Shown in pieces: positions 52,647 to 62,579 of a stretch of 64,000 bases of DNA (position 1 is the stretch's first letter; the number at the start of each line of letters is the position of its first letter). Both the position numbers and the translations under genes were made by a program. The stretch is from an uncultured candidate division Zixibacteria bacterium. GTDB lineage: Bacteria; Zixibacteria; MSB-5A5; RBG-16-43-9. The notes below the pieces were generated by a model, which worked only from the letters and a program-made list of their open reading frames with translations, did not search any database and was not told the origin of the DNA. The DNA is taken from the NCBI GenBank assembly GCA_963713865.1, contig OY970208.1, positions 1,152,001 to 1,216,000 on the forward strand. The letters run 5' to 3'.

Positions 52647-53675
52647 ATGAAAATGACTAAGACGAAAATAATCTGTACCTTGGGACCCTCGAGCGGAAAT
52701 GTCAAGGTGCTGAAAAAGATGATGTTAGCCGGGATGGAGGTAGCAAGGCTTAATTTTTCTCATGGGAACTCTGCGGAACATCAAAACCGAATAAATCTAA
52801 TAAAAGGTTTGAATAGTAAATATAAACGCAATATAAAGATATTGCAGGACTTAGAAGGCTACCGGATAAGAATCGGCAGGTTCAAGGATAAAAAAGAAAT
52901 TGAATTAAAAAAAAGACAGATTGTTCTGTTAACTAATAAAGATCAAGCAGGAGATAAAGAGATTATACCATTCGATTACCAGGGTGAATTAAGCGATATC
53001 AAAATTGATAGTTTCATCTATATAGACGATGGATATATCGCTCTAAAAGTAAAATCCAGGTCCAGGAATTATATCCAAGCAGAGGTAGTTATTCCGGGGG
53101 TCTTAAAGGAAAACAAGGGGGTTAATATTCCAGGAGCCAATTTGAGATTTAAAGATTTAACCGAAAAAGATAGAACGGATTTAAGATTTGGTATAAAAAA
53201 TAAAGTGGATTTTATTGCCCAGTCGTTTGTAAGAAACAAACAGGATATTAAAAACATCAGAGATTTCATCCGGGGCAACGATTTTAACTGCCGGATTATT
53301 GCCAAGATCGAAAACCAGGACGGGATCAGGAATATCGACAAGATATTGGAAGTGTCTGACGGTATCATGGTCGCGCGGGGAGATATGGGAGTCTCTTTGC
53401 CCATATATGAGGTTCCAATATGGCAGAAGATTATAATAGAAAAATGTAACCTTGAAAATAAATTTGTCATCACCGCTACCCAGATGCTGGAAAGTATGAC
53501 CGAACATATAAGGCCAACGCGGGCAGAGGTAAGCGATGTGGCTAATGCGATAATGGATGGATCTGATTATTTGATGCTTTCGGCTGAGACGGCAGTTGGA
53601 AAACTTCCGGTTGAGGCAGTGAAGATGATGCACCAGATTATCAAATATACTGAAAAGTTCCTGAAGAAGGATTGA
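52647..53675 (+). CDS. pyk: Pyruvate kinase, short form lacking the C-terminal domain
   Basis: [59 protein letters not shown]. Confidence 0.92.
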
Positions 53676-53927
53676 AAGCTGTAATATTTTTTCATCCATT
53701 GTAAAGCTGGTGAGGAAATTCTGACTCTTGCACCGGTAAAGATGACCCTAAATGTTATCCGAGCAAAAGCGAGGAATCTGTGGAATCTTCAGTCGTTACG
53801 TTACTTCAGAATGACGTAGAATCGGAAATCACACAGTGTGCCCTCAAAGAAGATAAACACTTCTGAAGCAACTGGAGAACCGCATTGACACGGTCAATTC
53901 ATCTCAAAAACCACTCCCAAAACAAAA

Positions 53928-54000
53928 TGCGCCTTGCAGGAATCGAACCTGCGACCCACTGATTAAGAGTCAGTTGCTCTACCAGCTGAGCTAAAGGCGC
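53928..54000 (-). tRNA. tRNA-Lys(CTT), CCA not encoded
   Basis: GCGCCTTTAGCTCAGCTGGTAGAGCAACTGACT-CTT-AATCAGTGGGTCGCAGGTTCGATTCCTGCAAGGCGCA cloverleaf. Confidence 0.97.
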
Positions 54001-54268
54001 AATTTATCTATAATATTAGCCAAACTCTAAAAGTTTAGCTGCATAATTCAAAACAGCTCAATCTTCTTTCAAATATAGTGCATCAAAAGGATTTTTGTCA
54101 AGCTTTTTCCAGAGAAGACCTCTGAAAAGCTCGTAATGCGGGGCTGGGAGCCCAGCCTACGAGGATTTTAAGCGGAGAGATTAGTAGTTGCTCGATTTGT
54201 CAAGCTAAAAATACCTATTGAATCAGGTAACTGTATATTAAAAAATGTTATTAATCGATTTGGGGGTT

Positions 54269-57164
54269 TTACTTTTGAGGGACCTGAAGCTGATATTGTT
54301 TCATCTTGAATCTCAGGCTGGACTCAGGTATTTTCAAAGCTTGAGCGGCAAATTTTTTCACCCAGTTATTTTCGATCAAGGCCTTAAGAAGATACTGTTT
54401 CTCTAATAAGGAGAGCCTCTCATATAAAGATAGACTCTCTTTTTTGAATTCTTTGGGCAGAGGGAACTTATCCGATAGTAGCTCTTCCAACTTGAATTCG
54501 TCGCTCTGGCTGTAAGCTAAAATACGCTTGGTCTCATTTTCTAACTCCCGTACATTCCCGGGCCAATCATATTCAGAACAGAGCTCCAGGATTAAAGGTT
54601 TTAAAGAGAACGCCTTCTGGTCTCCTTTAGAATGGGTTTTTATGAAATAGTCAACTAAAAGAGGTATATCTTCTCTTCTTTCCTTTAAAGGGAGAAGCTT
54701 GAGATTAACTGCATTCAATCTAAAATAAAGGTCCTTGCGGAAGCGGCCTTGTGCGACTTCTTCTTCTAAATTCTTATTGGTGGAAGCGACAATCCGGATG
54801 TCGATCTTCTTGGGTTTGGTCTCTCCTAAGCGGGTGATAACCTTCTCCTCCAGTACTCTAAGTAGTTTTACCTGAATAGATGGGCTTAAATCTCCGATCT
54901 CGTCTAAATAAAGAGTTCCTCCATCCGCTTCCTCGAAAAGCCCCTTTTTGTCAAAGGTGGCACCGGTATAGGAACCTTTCTTATGCCCGAAGAGTTCGGA
55001 TTCTAACAAAGGCTCAGGCAGAGCCGCACAGTTAACAGCCACAAAATTCTTATCTTTACGGTTGCTGGAATAATGCAATGCCTTAGCCAAGAAGTCTTTA
55101 CCTGTTCCGGTCTCCCCTTCGAAAAGGACCGAGAGATTAGTATCCTTGATCTGCTCCAGCTTCCACAAGATCTTGAGCATCTGACTGTTGCGGGTGATGA
55201 TCTGGGAGAAGGAGCATCTTTCTTCCAAAAGCTTTCTTAACCTTAAATTATCTTCCTGCAGATTTCTCTTCTGAAGCTCAGAGAGTTTCAAAGCTAACAG
55301 ATCCGAAAAGGCTACTGCGAAATTCAGCTCTTTCTGGGTGAAGGATGAAATATCATTAACCCGGTCAAGATAGATGAAGCCGCAGACCTCCTCTCCGGTT
55401 AAAAGAGGTATGAGCAGGAGAGAGTTTATCTTCCCATTTTCTAAAACCTTCTGAACAGATGTGGGGTGAGTAAAGATCAAAGGCTTAAAGAGATTATCCT
55501 TAGTATCAGCAGAGGAGAGATTAAAGGAATTAGAAGGGACTAAACTCTTAGCCAGATTCCTGGCTTTGTCTGGCTCGATGTTATAGAGTGAAGGGCAAGA
55601 AGGCTCTTCTGCTACTCCGTTTCTATAAACTATAAAACCTCTTTCAGCCTGAATCTTAGAAGCCAAAACTATTAATCTTTCTTCCAGAACTTCCTTCCTG
55701 TATATCCTGATATTCAGTATCAGAGAAGTACTTCCTGAAAAGCTTGAATTCGTTTTCCGAGGAAAGGCTTTTCAGGCTTAAACTCTTTTCTATTTCATCC
55801 CGCAAATCACTGCAAAGGGAAAGATTCTCCTTTTCTTCAAGTTCTTCAAATATTTTTTCAGCTTTATTCAGAGAATAGAGAGAGTTTTCAAAATTTTCCT
55901 GTTCAAGTTCAAGTTTAGCATGAGTAAACTCAGTTAATCCTTCAAGATATCTCAAATTCAATTCAGCGGAAAGCTTCTTCGCCTTTCCCAAACAATTCAG
56001 TTTTTCCGGATAATCGAAACCCTGGTTACGAGATAAGGAGATATATACCTTGATCTGCTCATATTTAGCATCGATTTCCTCTAAGAGGCTAACCCCTTTC
56101 TCAAAGGCTTCTCTGGCTTTATCCTTTTCATTTTTCAGGCTGTAGATTTCGCCGGAGATCTTATAAGCCAATCCCTCCTCTAATTTTTCACCCAAGGCTT
56201 TAGAAACTTTTAAGGATTTCTCAACATCCTCTGAGGCTTTTTCTAATTCATTTCCCCTTAGCTCTAACTCGGCTAAAAGCCTGTAGCTCTGGCTGATAAT
56301 GCCACCTTCTGGTGCTATCTTTTCTCCGATTTTAATAGCATTCAGATAACAGGATTTAGCCTCCTCTAACTTTTTCTGTTGAAAATATAGTTCCCCTTGA
56401 TACTCGTAATAGATGGCTAAATCTCTTAAGGATTCGTTTCTGCTAAGAAGCTGAAAAGCTCGGAGAAAATAGGAAGAGGCTTTTTTAAACTCTCTTTTTA
56501 AAATCTTAAGATAACCTAGGGAGAGGAGGCAACGAGATAAATTAATTTTCTGGCCAGCATTCTTAGTTTCCTTTATGTTGGATAAAAGATGCTTTTCAGC
56601 TAAGTCCAGTTCACCGCTCAGGGTGTAAATTCTACCCAAGTTTCTCTGGAATATACCGAGGGTTACCCAATCCCGGCTTTTTTCTAAATAGGAGATGCAT
56701 TCCTTAAGGTATTCTACAGCCTGCACATAATCCGAACGGATGAAACAGATCTGGGCAAGTTTGTTATAGCTCTGGACAATCCCTCTCTCCTCGTCTATCC
56801 TTCTACAAGTGGCAATTGAATCCCTGAACTCATTTTCTGCCTGTTTCAATCTCCCTGAAGCAAGATAAGATTTGCCCAGGATTGATTGTACCTGGGCAAT
56901 CCTTTTGTTCTCTATGGTGTTCCTGAAGAGTTCAAAAGATTTTTTACCGCTCTCCAGCGATTCGTCGTATCTGCCCAGACCGTATAATGCCACTGCGGAA
57001 AGATAATAGAATACCCCCATATCCAAAGAGCTGGTATTTAAACCTCCTTGGGTTTCAACCTCCTTGAGCTGTTGCCCGGCCTCCTTGAATTTATCTTTTT
57101 CTAAGAGGTGTTCAATCTGCTCAAGTCTTTCCTTAATTGATAAACCTTCTAATTTCTCCTTCAT
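54269..57164 (-). CDS. TPR-GAF-AAA+-HTH sigma54 enhancer-binding protein (~964 aa), split by an apparent +1 frameshift at 55684-55690
   Basis: Long N-terminal TPR array; removing one T gives ..QEGS-LEERLIVLASKIQAER..; GAF; GETGTGKD, ESELFGHKKGSYTGA, LYLDEIG, FRKDLYFRLN, WPGNVREL, Fis-type HTH. Confidence 0.85.
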
Positions 57165-57466
57165 TTCTTCCTAGGTAAAGAAACGTTTTTGACTGACACA
57201 TCCTTATTGACAACTTCCTGACTTTTCTCTTTCACTACCACGATGATAACTCCAGAATTAAGAAGTGGTGATGAGAAGATATAGACTTGACTGGTGGACG
57301 GGGTTAGATCCGGATTCCTGATAATTGGGGGCTGTGGTCGCTTTACTTCCTCCCACGGGTGTTCTAATACAGGAATATCTGAACCATCGCCCGCGTAAAC
57401 AAGCGGAACTGAGAATGAGAATATGAGAAGTATCAAAAAGGGTGTCAGGCACTTCCTTAAAGTCAT
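57161..57466 (-). CDS. Small secreted peptide/protein (signal peptide + GDGSDIPVLEHPWEE...)
   Basis: AAGGAGG RBS; Sec signal peptide ending VYA; stop overlaps the start of the TPR-bEBP gene (ATGA). Confidence 0.72.
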   Translation of the reverse strand: MTLRKCLTPFLILLIFSFSVPLVYAGDGSDIPVLEHPWEEVKRPQPPIIRNPDLTPSTSQVYIFSSPLLNSGVIIVVVKEKSQEVVNKDVSVKNVSLPRKK

Positions 57467-57764
57467 CTTTTTCGCCTCCTTTGCGCTTTTTTGGTTTTCT
57501 TTACCTTACTACTTCTTTCAAAAATGAGCTTTAAAACATCAATACAAAATAGATTTCTTACCACTAAAAATTTAGTCTATTTTAAAATATTGTCAAGTCT
57601 TTTTTTCAAAAATCTAACCAGAGAATCTTTTTATCTTACAATAAGTTATACGAACGAAGGGATTGATTTTGGAGCCAATTTCAGGATTGGTATTTCCAGG
57701 GGGAACAACTTAGATTTAAATTGCAGTGAAAGACTAATTTTAAAAGGATAGTTGATTAGATAAA

Positions 57765-58214
57765 CTACATCCCAGTTACTCTCAAGTTATATATTTTCCA
57801 CTTTCCATCTTTGAAGTAAAGACCCATGTTAGTATAATTCTTAATCCCGGTTATTTTGCTGACATAGGTAACTTCAACTGCGGCTGAATCCCTTTTAACT
57901 TTTGATTTCCCTATTACTACCAAACTGTTTTTCCAGCTCATCCGGGTAGATCCATCTCCGGTTAAATCTCTCAAAATTTCCTGTCTGATGTTAGGATAAA
58001 GTTCCTCCTTCTCTTTTACCGAAAAACCTTTCAGATTTTCACCTGCAATGTACTCCAAATCCAGATATTCCTTTAAAGCGGTGGTATCAGATTGATCCAC
58101 TGCGGTCATAAGTTTTTTTACCTCTTCCCTGGGATCAGGTTTATTAGAGCAGGAAGTCAAGGAGATTATAAAAAGTAAAAGGGATAAACCGATCATTTGA
58201 AAAAGCCTTTTCAT
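57765..58214 (-). CDS. Small lipoprotein, NTF2-like (DUF4878-like)
   Basis: Lipobox LTSC; A.VEVTY ... DGKWKI C-terminus. Confidence 0.7.
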   Translation of the reverse strand: MKRLFQMIGLSLLLFIISLTSCSNKPDPREEVKKLMTAVDQSDTTALKEYLDLEYIAGENLKGFSVKEKEELYPNIRQEILRDLTGDGSTRMSWKNSLVVIGKSKVKRDSAAVEVTYVSKITGIKNYTNMGLYFKDGKWKIYNLRVTGM

Positions 58215-58679
58215 CTTTTCCTCACTTTCTTTTTGGCTGCCAATTTTTTAGGCTTAAACTTTTTAATTGAATCAAACAACTTGTTTTCTTCAGAAGAAAA
58301 TATCACTCAAACTTAAAGGTCTGTCAATACCTATTTATAGAATATTTTTGTTTAAAAGGTATCAGGGGCAGGCACAGGGGCCTGCCCCTACCTCTTTCTG
58401 TCATTCTGAAGGAATCCCACCAAAAGCTGGCGACTGAAGAATCTACTTCAAAGCAAAATTCAATAGATTCTTCGATTGACAAGGCGTGATCAGAATAACA
58501 GTAGAAGTAAGGTTATAGTTAAACGTTCCTACAAAACATCTTCAAATCATAAGGGTTAATATAGGGTTTGCTCCTGCATAATTCTGCAATATTAAAGGTT
58601 AATTCTGGTTGACAACTTCAGGATTTGTTACTTACTTTAGCAAAAGGCTTTTTGAAAGAAGGCGGAGGAGATAAAACGA

Positions 58680-59336
58680 ATGGAAAAAGAACTTAAAGTT
58701 TTTATGCAAAGATGTTACAATTCGGTCCTGGAGGGGAATAAAGAGGAGGTTATAAAGTTATCCAGAGAAGCTATTAAATTAAAATACGACCCCTATCTTG
58801 TAGTTGAGAAAGGTCTGGTCGAAGGCATTAAGAAGTTAGGAAAAGAATGGGAGCAGGGGAGTTGTTTTCTACCTGAACTGGTCTTAGGAGCAGAGGCGGT
58901 AAAGGCTGGTATCTCAATTCTACAAAAACAGATTTTAAAAGTAAAGGCTGAAAAGAAAAGATTGCCCCGGCTGATAATCGGCACCATCGAAGGGGATATA
59001 CATGATATCGGAAAGATGTTGGTTGCCACTATGCTCTCAGCCAACGGGTTTGAGGTGATCGATTTAGGCGTGGATGTCAAAGCTGAGGTTTTTGTCAAAT
59101 CTGCAAAAAGGTACGAGCCGAAATTCCTCTGTATTTCGTCTTTACTTACTACTACTATGCAGAATGAGATTCAGGTCATGGAGGGATTAAAAAAAGCTAA
59201 TCTAAGAAAAAAGATCAAAGTTATGGTGGGTGGGGCACCAGCCAGCCAGGGCTGGGCAAAAGAGATCGGAGCAGATTTCTACGGGGAGAATGCTATTTCA
59301 GCAGTAAAAATTGCTCGAAAAGAGATGAGCGAATGA
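58680..59336 (+). CDS. Corrinoid (cobalamin-binding) methyl-carrier protein
   Basis: Cap domain FLPEL, GTIEGDIHDIGK (DxHxxG), SSLLTTTM, KVMVGGAP. Confidence 0.95.
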   Translation: MEKELKVFMQRCYNSVLEGNKEEVIKLSREAIKLKYDPYLVVEKGLVEGIKKLGKEWEQGSCFLPELVLGAEAVKAGISILQKQILKVKAEKKRLPRLIIGTIEGDIHDIGKMLVATMLSANGFEVIDLGVDVKAEVFVKSAKRYEPKFLCISSLLTTTMQNEIQVMEGLKKANLRKKIKVMVGGAPASQGWAKEIGADFYGENAISAVKIARKEMSE

Positions 59337-60244
59337 AAGGAACGCAAGGTAAAAAATCTATATTAGAATTGGGCAGGGAAAAGGTGGTTTTATTGGATGG
59401 GGCAATGGGAACGATGCTTTTCTCTGCGGGTCTGCCCTACAATAAACCGCCTGAACTGTGGAACCTTTCACATCCAGAAATAATTTTAAAGATTCACCAG
59501 AGATATATCCGGGCAGGTGTAGATATAATCCAGACCAATACTTTCGGAGCAAGCAGCCTGAAGTTAAAAAAATCAGGAAATGAAAAGAAGGTGGGGAAAA
59601 TCAATCTATCTGCAGTGAGGATTGCAAATGAAGCCTGTCCGGTTGACAAGTATGTTGCCGGGAATATCGGACCCAGCGGTGAATTTTTTGAGCCTTTAGG
59701 TAAGGCAAAATTTAGAGAGCTAAAAAAAGTTTTTTCCAGACAGGCTGAACTGCTTTTGGGAGGTGGAGTTGACCTTTTTTCTATTGAGACGATGTTTGAT
59801 TTAAGAGAAGCCTTATCCGCAGTTGAAGGAGTTAGGGAAGTATCTTCACTTCCCCTTTTCATCTGTATGACCTTTGAAAAAAAAATCAAGGGGTATTTTA
59901 CGCTGATGGGGGATGAGGTTTCATTCTCTTTGAAAAAGCTCGAAGAGGCAGGTGCGGATGTGGTTGGGGCTAACTGTACCCTGGGTAGTGCAGAGATGAT
60001 AGGATTGATCCCGGTAATGAAGAAAAGCACAAATCTACCGCTAATAGTTCAGCCAAATGCTGGAAAACCGGTGATTCGCAAAGGGAAAACGGTTTATCTT
60101 CAAAAACCAGATTCTTTTGCTAAGGATATATTTAGGATGATAAAGTCAGGGGTTAATTTTGCAGGAGGGTGCTGTGGCACTACCCCGGAATTTATTAGAA
60201 AGATTAAGGAAGGTTTGGAAAACTGTGAAAGACGGAAGTGCTGA
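59333..60244 (+). CDS. Homocysteine S-methyltransferase (MetH Hcy-binding module)
   Basis: LLDGAMGT, TNTFG, IETM.D, GANC, PNAGKP, GGCCGTTP zinc ligands. Confidence 0.93.
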   Translation: MKGTQGKKSILELGREKVVLLDGAMGTMLFSAGLPYNKPPELWNLSHPEIILKIHQRYIRAGVDIIQTNTFGASSLKLKKSGNEKKVGKINLSAVRIANEACPVDKYVAGNIGPSGEFFEPLGKAKFRELKKVFSRQAELLLGGGVDLFSIETMFDLREALSAVEGVREVSSLPLFICMTFEKKIKGYFTLMGDEVSFSLKKLEEAGADVVGANCTLGSAEMIGLIPVMKKSTNLPLIVQPNAGKPVIRKGKTVYLQKPDSFAKDIFRMIKSGVNFAGGCCGTTPEFIRKIKEGLENCERRKC

Positions 60245-60451
60245 GTAGTAAAGGGTGTAGAGACGCATTGCTATGCGTTTCTACGAAAGAATAATCGCGT
60301 AAGGGTGGGTGAAGAGCTGGTTGAGCGAAGCGAAATCCCGCTTTAGCGGGATCTCCACCCTTCACCCTTGTCAGGTCGGGGGACCTGACAAACACTGAGT
60401 ATTTTTTAATGATTAAAGCTAAAGCTTTACACTCCAGTTTGAAGATAAAAT

Positions 60452-61090
60452 ATGTTTGAGATAATTGAGAATTTCAAGGTAACAGTTGATCATAAGGAAA
60501 TATTAAGGCTTTTAGGGCATACCCCAGAAGATAAAAAGATAAAAGATAGCTCAAGGAAATTGATTGTGGAGATGATAGAGCTTTCTTTTGAGCTGACTAA
60601 ACCTAAAGGGATTTATACTGTCAAAGATATAAAAGAATTGCCAGAAGAATGCTCTTTTAACTCAGGTGAAAAAGTTGCATTCGGAATATCTACTATCAGT
60701 GAGAAGTTAGAGAAAAAGGTTAAGAGTTTAAGTTCTAAGGGTGAACAAACCAGAGCGGTTATTTTGGATGCCATTGGTTCTGTGGCGGCTGAATATACAG
60801 CAGAATATCTGAATCAGATTATCATAGATAAAGCTGAAGAAGATAATCTATATCATAGCCCCAGGTTCAGTCCGGGATATGGAGGATGGAAGTTAGAAGG
60901 GCAGAGACTTATCTTCAATTTATTACCAGCAGAAAAGATCAGAGTGAGTTTAAATCAATTTTATATGATGGTACCTAAAAAATCGGTCTCCTTTGCAGTT
61001 AATTTGAGCAGAAATCGTTTTAAAGGGAAAAACCTGTCACCCTGCGAAATCTGTGGATTAAAAGAGTGCCATTTTAAAAAAGAAAAATGA
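60452..61090 (+). CDS. Methionine synthase reactivation-domain protein
   Basis: LDAIGS..AE, RFSPGYG.W....Q, M.PKKSVS, C-terminal C..C....C. Confidence 0.88.
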   Translation: MFEIIENFKVTVDHKEILRLLGHTPEDKKIKDSSRKLIVEMIELSFELTKPKGIYTVKDIKELPEECSFNSGEKVAFGISTISEKLEKKVKSLSSKGEQTRAVILDAIGSVAAEYTAEYLNQIIIDKAEEDNLYHSPRFSPGYGGWKLEGQRLIFNLLPAEKIRVSLNQFYMMVPKKSVSFAVNLSRNRFKGKNLSPCEICGLKECHFKKEK

Positions 61091-61100
61091 AGGAGGGAAC

Positions 61101-62579
61101 TTGAGGATATTCAGGCGTCCTGAATTAGAACTCTTAGATAAGAAAAGGGTTGAGCATATTATAGATGAAGCTTTGGAGCTGCTTTTAAAGGTTGGAGTTT
61201 TTGTGGAGAACAAAGAAGGGCTTGCTCTTTTGGGTGATGCTGGAACAGGGATAGATAAGAAGAAGAAAAGAGCCTATCTTAAAAAAGAGTTGGTTGAAAG
61301 ATGTCTTAAAACTTGTCCAAAGGTAATTGAGGTTTATGACCGTGAAGAGAGGTTAGCTCTAAATCTAAAAGAAGATAAAGTCCATTTCAATCCCGGCTCT
61401 GCGGCTCTTTGGATTTATGACTTAAAAAAAGATGTGATCAGAGAACCAGTAACTTCTGATCTGATTAAATTTGCCCAGCTGGTGGATGGGTTGGATTACC
61501 TGAAAGCCCAGAGCACTGCTTTAATCCCTTCGGATGTGCCCAAGAAAATGGCAGATCGGTATCGGCTTTTCATTTCACTTTTATTTTCAGTTAAGCCAGT
61601 TATCACCGGGACATTTGAGAAAGATGCTTTTAAGATTATGAAAGATATGCTGGTTTGTATTAGAGGTGGCGAGGGTAATTTAAGAAAAAAGCCCTTAGCC
61701 ATTTTCGACTGTTGTCCATCGCCCCCTTTGAAATGGAGCGATTTAACCTGCCAGAACTTGATCGATTGTGCGAAAAGCGGGATCCCGGCTGAGCTGGTCT
61801 CTATGCCTTTAAGCGGGGCAACTGCACCGATTACCTTAGTTGGAAGCTTAGTTCAGCATACGGCGGAGAATCTAAGCGGGATCGTTATCCATCAACTTAC
61901 TCGCAGAGGTTCGCCGATTATCTACGGTGGCTCACCCTCCGGTTTTGATATGAGGACCGGGACAACTCCCATGGGGGCAATCGAGACTATGATGATAGAT
62001 TCAGCTTTTAACCAGATCGGGAAGTATTTTGGACTCCCCACCCATGCCTATATGGGGCTTAGCGACTCCAAGACAATGGATTATCAAGCCGGTTTAGAAT
62101 CAGGGATCGGTGCGATTTTAGCTGCCTTATCCGGGATAAATGTTGTTTCCGGACCAGGTATGCTCGATTTTGAAAGTTGCCAGAGTTTAGAGAAGCTGGT
62201 TATAGATAACGAGATCTGCGGGATGGCATATCGATTGATTGAGGGGATTAATTTTAAAGATAAAACTCCTTCTTTAGACCTGTTCAAGGAGGAGTTTTTA
62301 GAAAAAGGGTTTTTGACCTCTCCTTATACTCTTAAATGGTTTAAAAAGGAGTTTTTCTTTCCCAGCCAGGTGATAGACCGGTCAAATTTAGGTGAATGGA
62401 TCAAGAAAGGTAAAAAGAGCGCGATCTGGAAAGCCAGGGAACTGGTTGAGAAAATAGTTTCTCTTAAAAGCTTTAACCAGGTTCCGGTAGAAAAAAAGAA
62501 AGAGCTTCAGAAGATTATCCTGATGGATGCGAAGAACTATGAATTTGATCAGGAGTTGAAGAAGAGGTTTAAGAATTGA
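61101..62579 (+). CDS. Non-pyrrolysine MttB/MtgB-family methylamine:corrinoid methyltransferase
   Basis: L..VGV, SPPL.W, M.LSGATAP.TL.G.L.Q..AE.L.G, DMRTG...G.IE, SDSK..DYQAG.E, GML......S.EKLVIDNE; no in-frame TAG. Confidence 0.9.
   Translation: MRIFRRPELELLDKKRVEHIIDEALELLLKVGVFVENKEGLALLGDAGTGIDKKKKRAYLKKELVERCLKTCPKVIEVYDREERLALNLKEDKVHFNPGSAALWIYDLKKDVIREPVTSDLIKFAQLVDGLDYLKAQSTALIPSDVPKKMADRYRLFISLLFSVKPVITGTFEKDAFKIMKDMLVCIRGGEGNLRKKPLAIFDCCPSPPLKWSDLTCQNLIDCAKSGIPAELVSMPLSGATAPITLVGSLVQHTAENLSGIVIHQLTRRGSPIIYGGSPSGFDMRTGTTPMGAIETMMIDSAFNQIGKYFGLPTHAYMGLSDSKTMDYQAGLESGIGAILAALSGINVVSGPGMLDFESCQSLEKLVIDNEICGMAYRLIEGINFKDKTPSLDLFKEEFLEKGFLTSPYTLKWFKKEFFFPSQVIDRSNLGEWIKKGKKSAIWKARELVEKIVSLKSFNQVPVEKKKELQKIILMDAKNYEFDQELKKRFKN

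Follow-up and report, generated by a model that had tools for sequence, protein, structure and literature searches.

A conserved two-gene cassette of Zixibacteria pairs a small, predicted exported HPW-motif protein with a TPR-sigma54 activator

Introduction

To our knowledge, nearly all systems in which a gene-encoded peptide is read by a cytoplasmic tetratricopeptide repeat (TPR) receptor come from Firmicutes and the phages that infect them, and their outputs are simple DNA-binding or phosphatase activities. In these RRNPP systems the mature peptide is re-imported by an oligopeptide permease (Opp). Here we describe a locus which shows an RRNPP-like genetic signature in an uncultured diderm phylum, joined to an ATP-driven sigma54 activator and present in several copies per genome. 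It consists of a gene for a small, predicted exported protein with a His-Pro-Trp (HPW) motif and an adjoining gene for a TPR-sigma54 activator, and lies at positions 54269–57466 of a 64,000-nucleotide stretch (the window; positions 1,152,001–1,216,000 of contig OY970208.1, assembly GCA_963713865.1) of an uncultured candidate division Zixibacteria bacterium. The source genome (G000) is one contig of 2.72 Mb with 40% G+C and is 94% complete. The conserved and expanded cassette is real and appears to be undescribed; the literature on Zixibacteria regulation, TPR enhancer-binding proteins and RRNPP systems with sigma54 or in diderms, supplements and subscription journals lying outside the coverage, yielded nothing on such a cassette.

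The published description of RRNPP systems gives a five-point signature, namely a propeptide of 10–100 aa, a Sec signal, a receptor of 250–500 aa, TPRs and adjacent genes; clusters with N-terminal TPRs were discarded, and the TPRs are expected C-terminal to the effector domain (PMC10075063). As in Rap/Phr, NprR/NprX, PlcR/PapR, PrgX and AimR/AimP, a Sec-type small gene adjoins a cytoplasmic TPR gene (PMC10075063), the families have expanded into many diverged pairs, and the TPR domain of the cassette has weak sequence similarity to a Rap protein (E 1.5e-3). By these points, the small protein sits at or just over the length bound (101 aa in the window, mostly 95–120 aa in the family), it has a Sec-type signal (by inspection across the family, with a predicted helix at residues 3–23), and the two genes are adjacent, overlapping by ATGA in the window and neighbouring each other in 30 of 30 and 28 of 28 cassettes. 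The receptor, in contrast, is about 964 aa (916–993 aa in a long class and about 790–850 aa in a short class) rather than 250–500 aa, and its TPRs occupy the N-terminal 470 residues rather than the C-terminal part. Further differences are the output, which is a sigma54 AAA+ activator and not a helix-turn-helix (HTH) domain or phosphatase alone; the small protein, which is about 100 aa long, encoded upstream, and combines a motif near the mature N-terminus with a hairpin and a tail; the host, a diderm outside Firmicutes; and the OppA-type binding protein, which was not found in most cassette genomes (PF00496 in 7 of 41 searched, a set that includes G000). By that description, the cassette works like an RRNPP system at best and stands outside its membership.

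Other described systems share single features with the cassette. GAF-containing enhancer-binding proteins of the NifA, FhlA and NorR type have the same order of GAF, sigma54 AAA+ and HTH_8 domains, but in the cassette activator these are preceded by a further TPR domain, about 470 aa long, and its gene has an obligatory partner encoding a small exported protein. The MalT/STAND regulators also place a TPR-like superhelical sensor on an ATPase that must oligomerise for transcription, and MalT domain III (1hz4) gave the best target-normalised template modelling (TM) score against the TPR domain (0.80, root-mean-square deviation (rmsd) 4.0; Pfam TPR_MalT, E 6.7e-20); the cassette ATPase is, however, a sigma54-type AAA+ and not NOD/NB-ARC, its sensor precedes the ATPase, and the proposed ligand is a gene-encoded protein where that of MalT is a sugar. 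In LGN/Pins, which gave the closest solved sequences and the top Foldseek matches, a TPR superhelix holds extended disordered peptides of Inscuteable, NuMA or Frmpd, but these are eukaryotic polarity proteins and the likeness is one of repeat type, with 13–18% identity for the chains listed. Sigma54 activators regulated by the binding of a small partner encoded nearby are represented by PspF/PspA and HrpS/HrpV; unlike the cassette activator, those activators are not known to have a sensor domain, the partner contacts the AAA+ domain, and the partners are not known to be Sec-exported.

The gene pair in the window

All parts of the cassette lie on the minus strand. The small open reading frame (ORF; 57161–57466, 101 aa) is preceded by a Shine-Dalgarno sequence, AGGAGG, read at 57475–57480, 8 nt 5' of its ATG. 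Residues 1–24 (57395–57466) form a predicted signal peptide in which, by inspection, a basic n-region and about 18 hydrophobic residues are followed by V-Y-A preceding G25, and AlphaFold2 (AF2) placed a helix at residues 3–23. The conserved motif E-H-P-W-E-E occupies residues 35–40 (57347–57364), and the stop codon overlaps the start of the next ORF in ATGA at 57161–57164. An initial annotation made from the DNA letters had described this ORF with its strong ribosome-binding site, a Sec signal peptide cleaved after VYA, the mature start with an EHPW segment, and the ATGA overlap, and all of these were found again. It had read the remainder of the small protein as a Pro-rich low-complexity tail; a Pro-rich linker is indeed present, but it leads into a conserved hydrophobic beta-hairpin (residues 60–78, 57233–57289; AF2 strands at 60–65 and 73–78) and a basic C-terminal tail (residues 79–101, 57164–57232) which is alike among orthologues and divergent among paralogues. 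For the downstream product, the TPR, GAF, sigma54 AAA+ (with GSYTGA) and HTH domains were each recovered by Pfam or in the sequence, but the single frame of about 964 aa was not, being split in the window into a TPR ORF of 502 aa (55656–57164, the N-terminal part of the activator, truncated by a frameshift) and a GAF-AAA+-HTH_8 ORF of 465 aa counted from TTG (54269–55666, the C-terminal part). The earlier observation is therefore confirmed in part; it differs from the present one in the unbroken frame given to the activator and in the simpler make-up given to the small protein.

Pairing was universal among the loci examined. When the TPR domain was used as query 20 loci were returned, and a small ORF lay directly upstream on the same strand in 18 of the 18 with upstream DNA; the remaining two start at a contig end, and one of these retains the last 15 codons of the small ORF. 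Of 151 genomes sampled from the phylum, 61 contained matches to a small-ORF profile, up to 7 in a single genome, and the best loci of this profile had a TPR-activator ORF directly downstream on the same strand in 30 of 30. Cross-tabulation in five well-assembled genomes gave 7/7 (G012), 5/5 (G009), 6/6 (G016), 5/5 (G019) and 4/5 (G021), and recovery of the missing G021 case by inspection brought the total to 28/28. Where the profile had missed the small ORF of an activator (four cases, in G021, G036, G038 and G039) or matched it weakly (G037), an ORF with signal peptide and HPW was present upstream in 5/5, so that 61 of 151 genomes is an underestimate. The check proposed in the initial annotation, to ask whether homologues have an upstream small signal-peptide ORF with an HPW-type motif, was thus positive, and the HPW segment is the most conserved feature of these ORFs.

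Some genomes carry 5–7 cassettes. The activators fall into two length classes, a long one with GAF (orthologues of 953–966 aa) and a short one of about 790–850 aa, and the only other family member in G000 is a 793-aa TPR-AAA+ activator without GAF (C1:967940-970321) which has its own DPW-type small ORF of about 102 aa. This second cassette (C1:967940-970619) follows directly after genes for a histidine kinase and a response-regulator activator of the NtrC type, and downstream of it are three paralogues encoding secreted proteins of about 310–360 aa. At L061/L091 (G081:C1:1183422-1184631), G019:C151, G019:C2 and G089:C38 a single activator gene is preceded by tandem HPW small ORFs, two or three in number and diverged from one another. 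Two finds came from assemblies with other labels, namely a family member (P0178) on a 4-kb contig of a metagenome-assembled genome (MAG) labelled Heimdallarchaeota and a MAG locus (L042), 82% identical to the window, labelled uncultured Ignavibacteria; both are probably binning or labelling artefacts and not signs of a wider distribution.

Across 22 neighbourhoods of 10–18 kb, which were picked from cassette hits and are hence uninformative on pairing frequency, no third conserved gene recurred beyond local orthologous synteny. The neighbours of the cassettes were varied and often encoded envelope or secreted proteins, such as outer membrane protein beta-barrels, peptidases, giant proteins with immunoglobulin domains and a TonB receptor.

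The small-protein family

The small ORF gave zero Pfam or NCBIfam family matches. A profile built from 25 cassette ORFs retrieved 137 cluster representatives at E ≤ 1e-3, of which 29 reached E ≤ 1e-10; almost every one is 95–120 aa long, those named by their source are called hypothetical, and the family is real but without annotation. The common layout begins with a signal-peptide-like N-terminus and an acidic segment holding the motif; then come about 19 hydrophobic residues with a G/P/N turn among them, which correspond to the hairpin of the window protein, and a tail, polar and basic, which averages about 27 residues. By inspection, small residues recur through the family at −3 and −1 of the predicted cleavage site. 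Mean net charge was −3.4 for the segment before the hydrophobic stretch and +2.5 for the tail. The motif reads [E/A/G]-[H/D]-P-W-[Q/D/E]-[E/D/H], often with S-P next. P37 and W38 were invariant in the 25 cassette ORFs and P37 in 109 sequences; in motif windows from 135 of the 137 representatives, which were extracted by a pattern fixing P, W was found in 118, H in 102 and D in 30. A minority of the family reads HP[D/E/H]QE in place of the HPW-type motif. AF2 modelling of the small protein with the 109-sequence alignment gave a helix at 3–23, strands at 60–65 and 73–78 and disorder elsewhere, with a mean predicted local distance difference test (pLDDT) of 68.8, and the ESM Atlas returned zero matches at ≥0.8 and generic structural neighbours only.

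Uncorrected ratios of nonsynonymous to synonymous differences (pN/pS), computed among six orthologues, were 0.49 for the signal peptide (residues 1–24), 0.22 for the motif region (25–42), the lowest of all regions, 0.68 for the linker (43–60), 0.54 for the hairpin (61–79) and 0.50 for the tail (80–95). Codons 96–101 had zero synonymous changes and gave no computable value, as is explained by their overlap with the ribosome-binding site and the start of the downstream ORF. Since the ORF is conserved in 137 representatives and pN/pS is below 1 in all five computable regions, it is more than a chance ORF.

These data bear on whether the small ORF acts as a protein or as a leader. Arrest-type upstream ORFs such as those of SecM, VemP and MifM monitor secretion, and here too an upstream ORF has a signal peptide, a conserved motif containing W and P, and an ATGA overlap through which it could set the level of the activator. 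The motif, however, lies about 12 residues past the cleavage site and 63 codons before the stop; with this placement a ribosome stalled at the motif would leave the signal peptide in its tunnel and the distant start masked. The hairpin and tail are moreover under purifying selection as protein, and in many paralogues the small ORF and the activator are separated by tens of bases with no overlap. We regard control by such a leader peptide as very improbable.

Three other assignments were tried. A membrane anchor was rejected on hydropathy, the median best 19-residue value being 1.46, with 36 of 124 sequences reaching 1.6 and a charged residue in the segment in 101 of 124. PEP-CTERM-like sorting was dropped, the tail after the hydrophobic segment averaging about 27 residues, as was a precursor of a ribosomally synthesized and post-translationally modified peptide, a radical-SAM neighbour being present at only 2 of 22 loci. 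The two radical-SAM genes lie just downstream of their cassettes (L086:9519-10634 and L090:9527-10978) and are too few for a link.

The activator and its interrupted frame

The TPR ORF matched TPR_12 (PF13424, E 1.3e-34) in addition to TPR_MalT, and contains about 11 TPR pairs which AF2 modelled as an all-helical superhelix over residues 10–466 (pLDDT 89.6, predicted TM score 0.83). Among solved structures its nearest sequences were LGN/GPSM2/Pins (E 2.5e-7), followed by the marginal match to a Rap phosphatase noted above. Foldseek placed LGN/Pins on top (E 5.4e-9), and MalT domain III gave the best target-normalised TM score; LGN-Inscuteable, LGN-Frmpd4, TSK-H3.1, APPBP2-degron and OGT were among the matches listed, and no RRNPP receptor was among them. 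Most of these matches are TPRs which grip an extended peptide in their groove, whereas MalT domain III senses a sugar. No hydrophobic segment lies between the TPR domain and GAF, and the sensor is for this reason predicted to be cytoplasmic.

In the C-terminal ORF, Pfam matched GAF (PF01590, residues 6–126, E 6.1e-6), the full profile of the sigma54 AAA+ domain (PF00158, residues 156–322, E 1.7e-69), the AAA lid (PF25601, residues 328–397) and HTH_8 (PF02954, residues 419–458, E 1.5e-6). Walker A is present as GETGTGK (55097–55117), GGTLYLDE is also present, and the GAFTGA-type loop reads GSYTGA (54959–54976) in the window and GAYTGA in the family consensus. With Walker A and B motifs, a GAFTGA-type loop, a C-terminal Fis-type HTH, and sigma54 itself in the genome (rpoN DNA-binding domain at C1:872663-873139, 188 bits), the activator is by its domain content a bona fide sigma54 enhancer-binding protein. 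Every NCBIfam match fell below its cut-off, the best being NifA (316.7 against 528.85 bits), and the protein is therefore no equivalog of the named activators; matches to HaaT and PrsT were set aside as generic TPR similarity far below the cut-offs.

The window copy departs from other enhancer-binding proteins in that it is not one intact reading frame, while its orthologues are. Three-frame translation of the junction showed that the TPR ORF ends in TAA and that the GAF-AAA+-HTH part follows in a different frame. The junction reads GGAAGTTCTGG in the window and GGAAG-[C/T]CTGG in the orthologues of G001, G002, G005, G007 and G008, which gives one extra base (T on the coding strand, minus strand) at 55688 in the TPR/GAF linker. 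In three public DNA runs (X1, X3 and X7, each from a different study and together all the DNA runs covering 55688) the contigs differed from the window by 1–2%, and in each exactly one letter was absent at 55688, the sole indel over the 3.5 kb compared. Orthologue frames of 953–966 aa were open in G001–G003, G006–G008, G011 and G015, and all 37 of the 37 longer homologues fetched with the TPR ORF were 916–993 aa with both TPR and sigma54 domains. As the three sets of contigs and the orthologues are without the extra base, strains nearly identical to this one have an intact activator gene. The extra base may be a true mutation of this strain or an artefact of assembly, and the runs need not derive from the source sample; the neighbouring genes give full-length Pfam matches, so the assembly is not full of frameshifts. 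The orthologue in G005 (L009, G005:C30) is split into about 500 and 499 aa by an independent deletion of 1 nt, which lies within this linker about 60 nt upstream of the inserted base. The linker is thus broken in 2 of 8 orthologues (families f1 and f4, with the junction assembled), for which error, decay and a tolerated split are all possible.

Contact between the small protein and the TPR domain

The initial annotation had suggested co-folding of the mature peptide with the TPR domain as a check. We co-folded TPR residues 1–502 (49-row alignment) with small-protein residues 25–101 (109-row alignment) alongside three controls, and obtained a score of 0.44 (runs of 0.44, 0.46 and 0.43) where the controls reached 0.00–0.01 (best 0.01). 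The pLDDT of the partner was 33–36 (at least 32), and contact agreement was at least 48%. In a calibration on 80 solved complexes and 110 mismatched pairs, 58 of the former and 2 of the latter reached the mark; with scores of 0.60 or below, only 7 of the 80 solved complexes did so, together with both of the passing mismatches. The model accordingly lends weak support to binding. Over 30 cassettes, distances between the mature small proteins correlated with those of the TPR domains (r 0.73; partial, given AAA+, 0.44) and with those of the AAA+ domains (r 0.68; partial 0.26), which is compatible with co-evolution and could equally be produced by linkage alone.

We tentatively favour, as the reading with the best claim on these data, a new cassette of cognate exported ligand and TPR sensor which feeds sigma54 with RRNPP-like logic while standing outside RRNPP. 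The window locus would then be one copy of a two-gene signalling cassette of Zixibacteria. The product of the first gene, of about 100 aa, would be exported by Sec and leave about 77 residues after removal of the signal peptide, with an acidic disordered N-terminus bearing HPW, a short hydrophobic beta-hairpin and a basic tail. The second gene, predicted to be translationally coupled to the first, would supply a cytoplasmic sigma54 activator with its N-terminal TPR superhelix (about 470 aa) as sensor and, in the long class, GAF as a second input. The cognate ligand of the TPR domain would be the exported protein or an HPW-containing fragment; HPW and its acidic flank may be the core by which the ligands of all cassettes dock, and the flanks or tail, which vary, may make each paralogue specific. 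Once bound, the ligand would switch the assembly of the AAA+ domain and thereby, in whichever direction, sigma54-dependent transcription of the presumptive target genes. The signal would either return to the cytoplasm, as in RRNPP logic, or the TPR domain would meet the small protein before export. Export seems essential, since every member of the small-protein family has kept its signal peptide.

A more specific form of this proposal, possible and put forward with slightly less confidence, is that the phylum uses paralogue-expanded private channels, in each of which a Sec-exported protein of about 75 aa docks through the HPW-acidic core into the TPR superhelix of its own activator, after return or before export. 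Private channels are favoured by the expansion of the paralogues with strong divergence, as a housekeeping export route would not need 5–7 reporters. If this form is true, no earlier system of a gene-encoded ligand and a cytoplasmic TPR receptor would have been described from a diderm phylum, nor any with a sigma54 output, and the partner protein would be unlike known propeptides. If the two proteins bind at all, they would represent a new input class for enhancer-binding proteins, peptides could be used to test the conserved HPW motif as a docking site, and the cassette would offer an approach to how uncultured bacteria of sediments perceive one another or their own envelope.

Several results weigh against the proposal of a cognate exported ligand. 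The co-fold pass is weak; it did not return an interface, and a docking segment could not be assigned. The receptor gene is frameshifted in the window. No OppA-type binding protein (PF00496) was found in G000 (94% complete) or in most of the other genomes searched, in a scan for this family alone, and some genomes in which it was not found carry 5–7 cassettes. Being common to all paralogues of one genome, the HPW core is not what would make a signal private. Known RRNPP peptides are far smaller than the mature protein, whose hairpin and tail the proposal does not account for, and the outer membrane of a diderm envelope is a barrier to any cell-to-cell signal. A scan of the window for TGGCAC-N5-TTGC with up to 2 mismatches gave no convincing sigma54 promoter at the locus, and the 35 sigma54-like sites in the window are no excess over shuffled sequence (27.75 ± 4.94). 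Strong sigma54 sites occurred in only 4 of the 22 neighbourhoods and in neither of the two around the cassettes of G000.

The two interpretations in the initial annotation can be placed accordingly. Its peptide-sensing RRNPP-like activator is supported in part, and agrees with the pairing, the conservation of HPW, the peptide-binding type of TPR fold and the weak co-fold, but not with the receptor size and TPR position of RRNPP systems or with the scarcity of OppA. Its candidate signal core, EHPW, is the most conserved feature of the small ORFs, yet being common to all paralogues it is not a private signal by itself.

The scarcity of OppA-type importers would be of no consequence if the TPR domain met the small protein before its export. 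In the FlgM/sigma28 pair and in the TPR chaperone IpgC with MxiE, secretion of a bound partner is coupled to transcription by an analogous logic, and in the cassette the TPR domain might hold the small protein before export, with Sec export freeing the activator, which would thus read export or envelope status with no re-import. The small gene lies upstream and is translationally coupled, so that both proteins would be made together; a docking motif common to all paralogues suits a generic capture site; the mature part is mostly disordered in the AF2 model, as a chaperone client might be; and the co-fold score of 0.44 against a best control of 0.01 counts equally here, with the same calibration caveats. 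Sec is, however, a housekeeping route, and 5–7 or more diverged cassettes per genome would all read one thing. We found no described Sec-substrate anti-activator, in the course of work that included no search aimed at one, and the conserved hairpin and basic tail would be unexplained. An export-coupled partner switch of this kind is in our view improbable.

Candidate promoters and an alternative without contact

In 3 of 47 upstream regions a TGGCGC-N5-TTGCA site or a variant of it lies about 93 nt (−92 to −94) upstream of the small ORF, and all belong to a GHPWG-type subfamily (L019, L029 and L037/L085), in which this suggests sigma54 control of the cassette itself. Two more of the 47 regions have other, weaker candidate sites, at −142 and −166.

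Such a site would fit a regulated product, and the two proteins might never touch. The small protein could be an envelope or extracellular factor co-expressed with its regulator, as first product of the regulon or as a periplasmic accessory, while the TPR domain senses something else. The weak co-fold with its partner pLDDT of 33–36 and the frequent envelope and secreted proteins among the cassette neighbours are in keeping with this. On the other hand, the mature part has diverged by about 80% and yet none of the cassettes examined lacked the pairing, stop and start overlap in the window and no third conserved gene was found across the neighbourhoods compared, the −93 site is confined to 3 of 47 regions (with the two weaker sites besides), and the co-fold controls reached only 0.00–0.01. 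We consider this explanation unlikely, if less so than the export-coupled switch.

Upstream of the small ORF in the window, about 100 nt away, a sigma70-type promoter-like site (TTGACA, 16-nt spacer, TAAATT; 57569–57596, minus strand) has 10 of 12 matches; it is a consensus match only, as the region searched has 12 sigma70-like sites against 8.6 ± 2.9 in shuffles. One RNA run (X11) gave contigs over parts of the locus, including 57277–57501 and without 55688, which we did not count as proof of expression since DNA carry-over is possible.

Genomic surroundings

A perfect G+C-rich hairpin of 10–11 pairs (58363–58390), terminator-like on both strands, stands between a lipoprotein-like gene (57765–58214, minus strand) and a divergent operon (58680–62579, plus strand). 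The operon encodes a B12-binding corrinoid protein (PF02310/PF02607), a protein with a homocysteine S-methyltransferase domain (PF02574), a third protein whose similarity to the methionine-synthase activation domain (PF02965) is weak, and a methyltransferase of the MttB family (PF06253), the frame of which is uninterrupted; the set resembles a corrinoid-dependent system for methyl transfer.

The activator gene is followed closely by a tRNA-Lys gene (anticodon CTT; 53927–54001, minus strand), with a good promoter-like site, TTGACA-18-TATATT, at 54072–54101. This tRNA gene accounts for the greater part of the long non-coding gap before the convergent pyruvate-kinase-like gene (52647–53675, plus strand), whose 342-aa product matches PF00224 over its full length and consists of the barrel domain only, the C-terminal domain not being detected at the threshold used.

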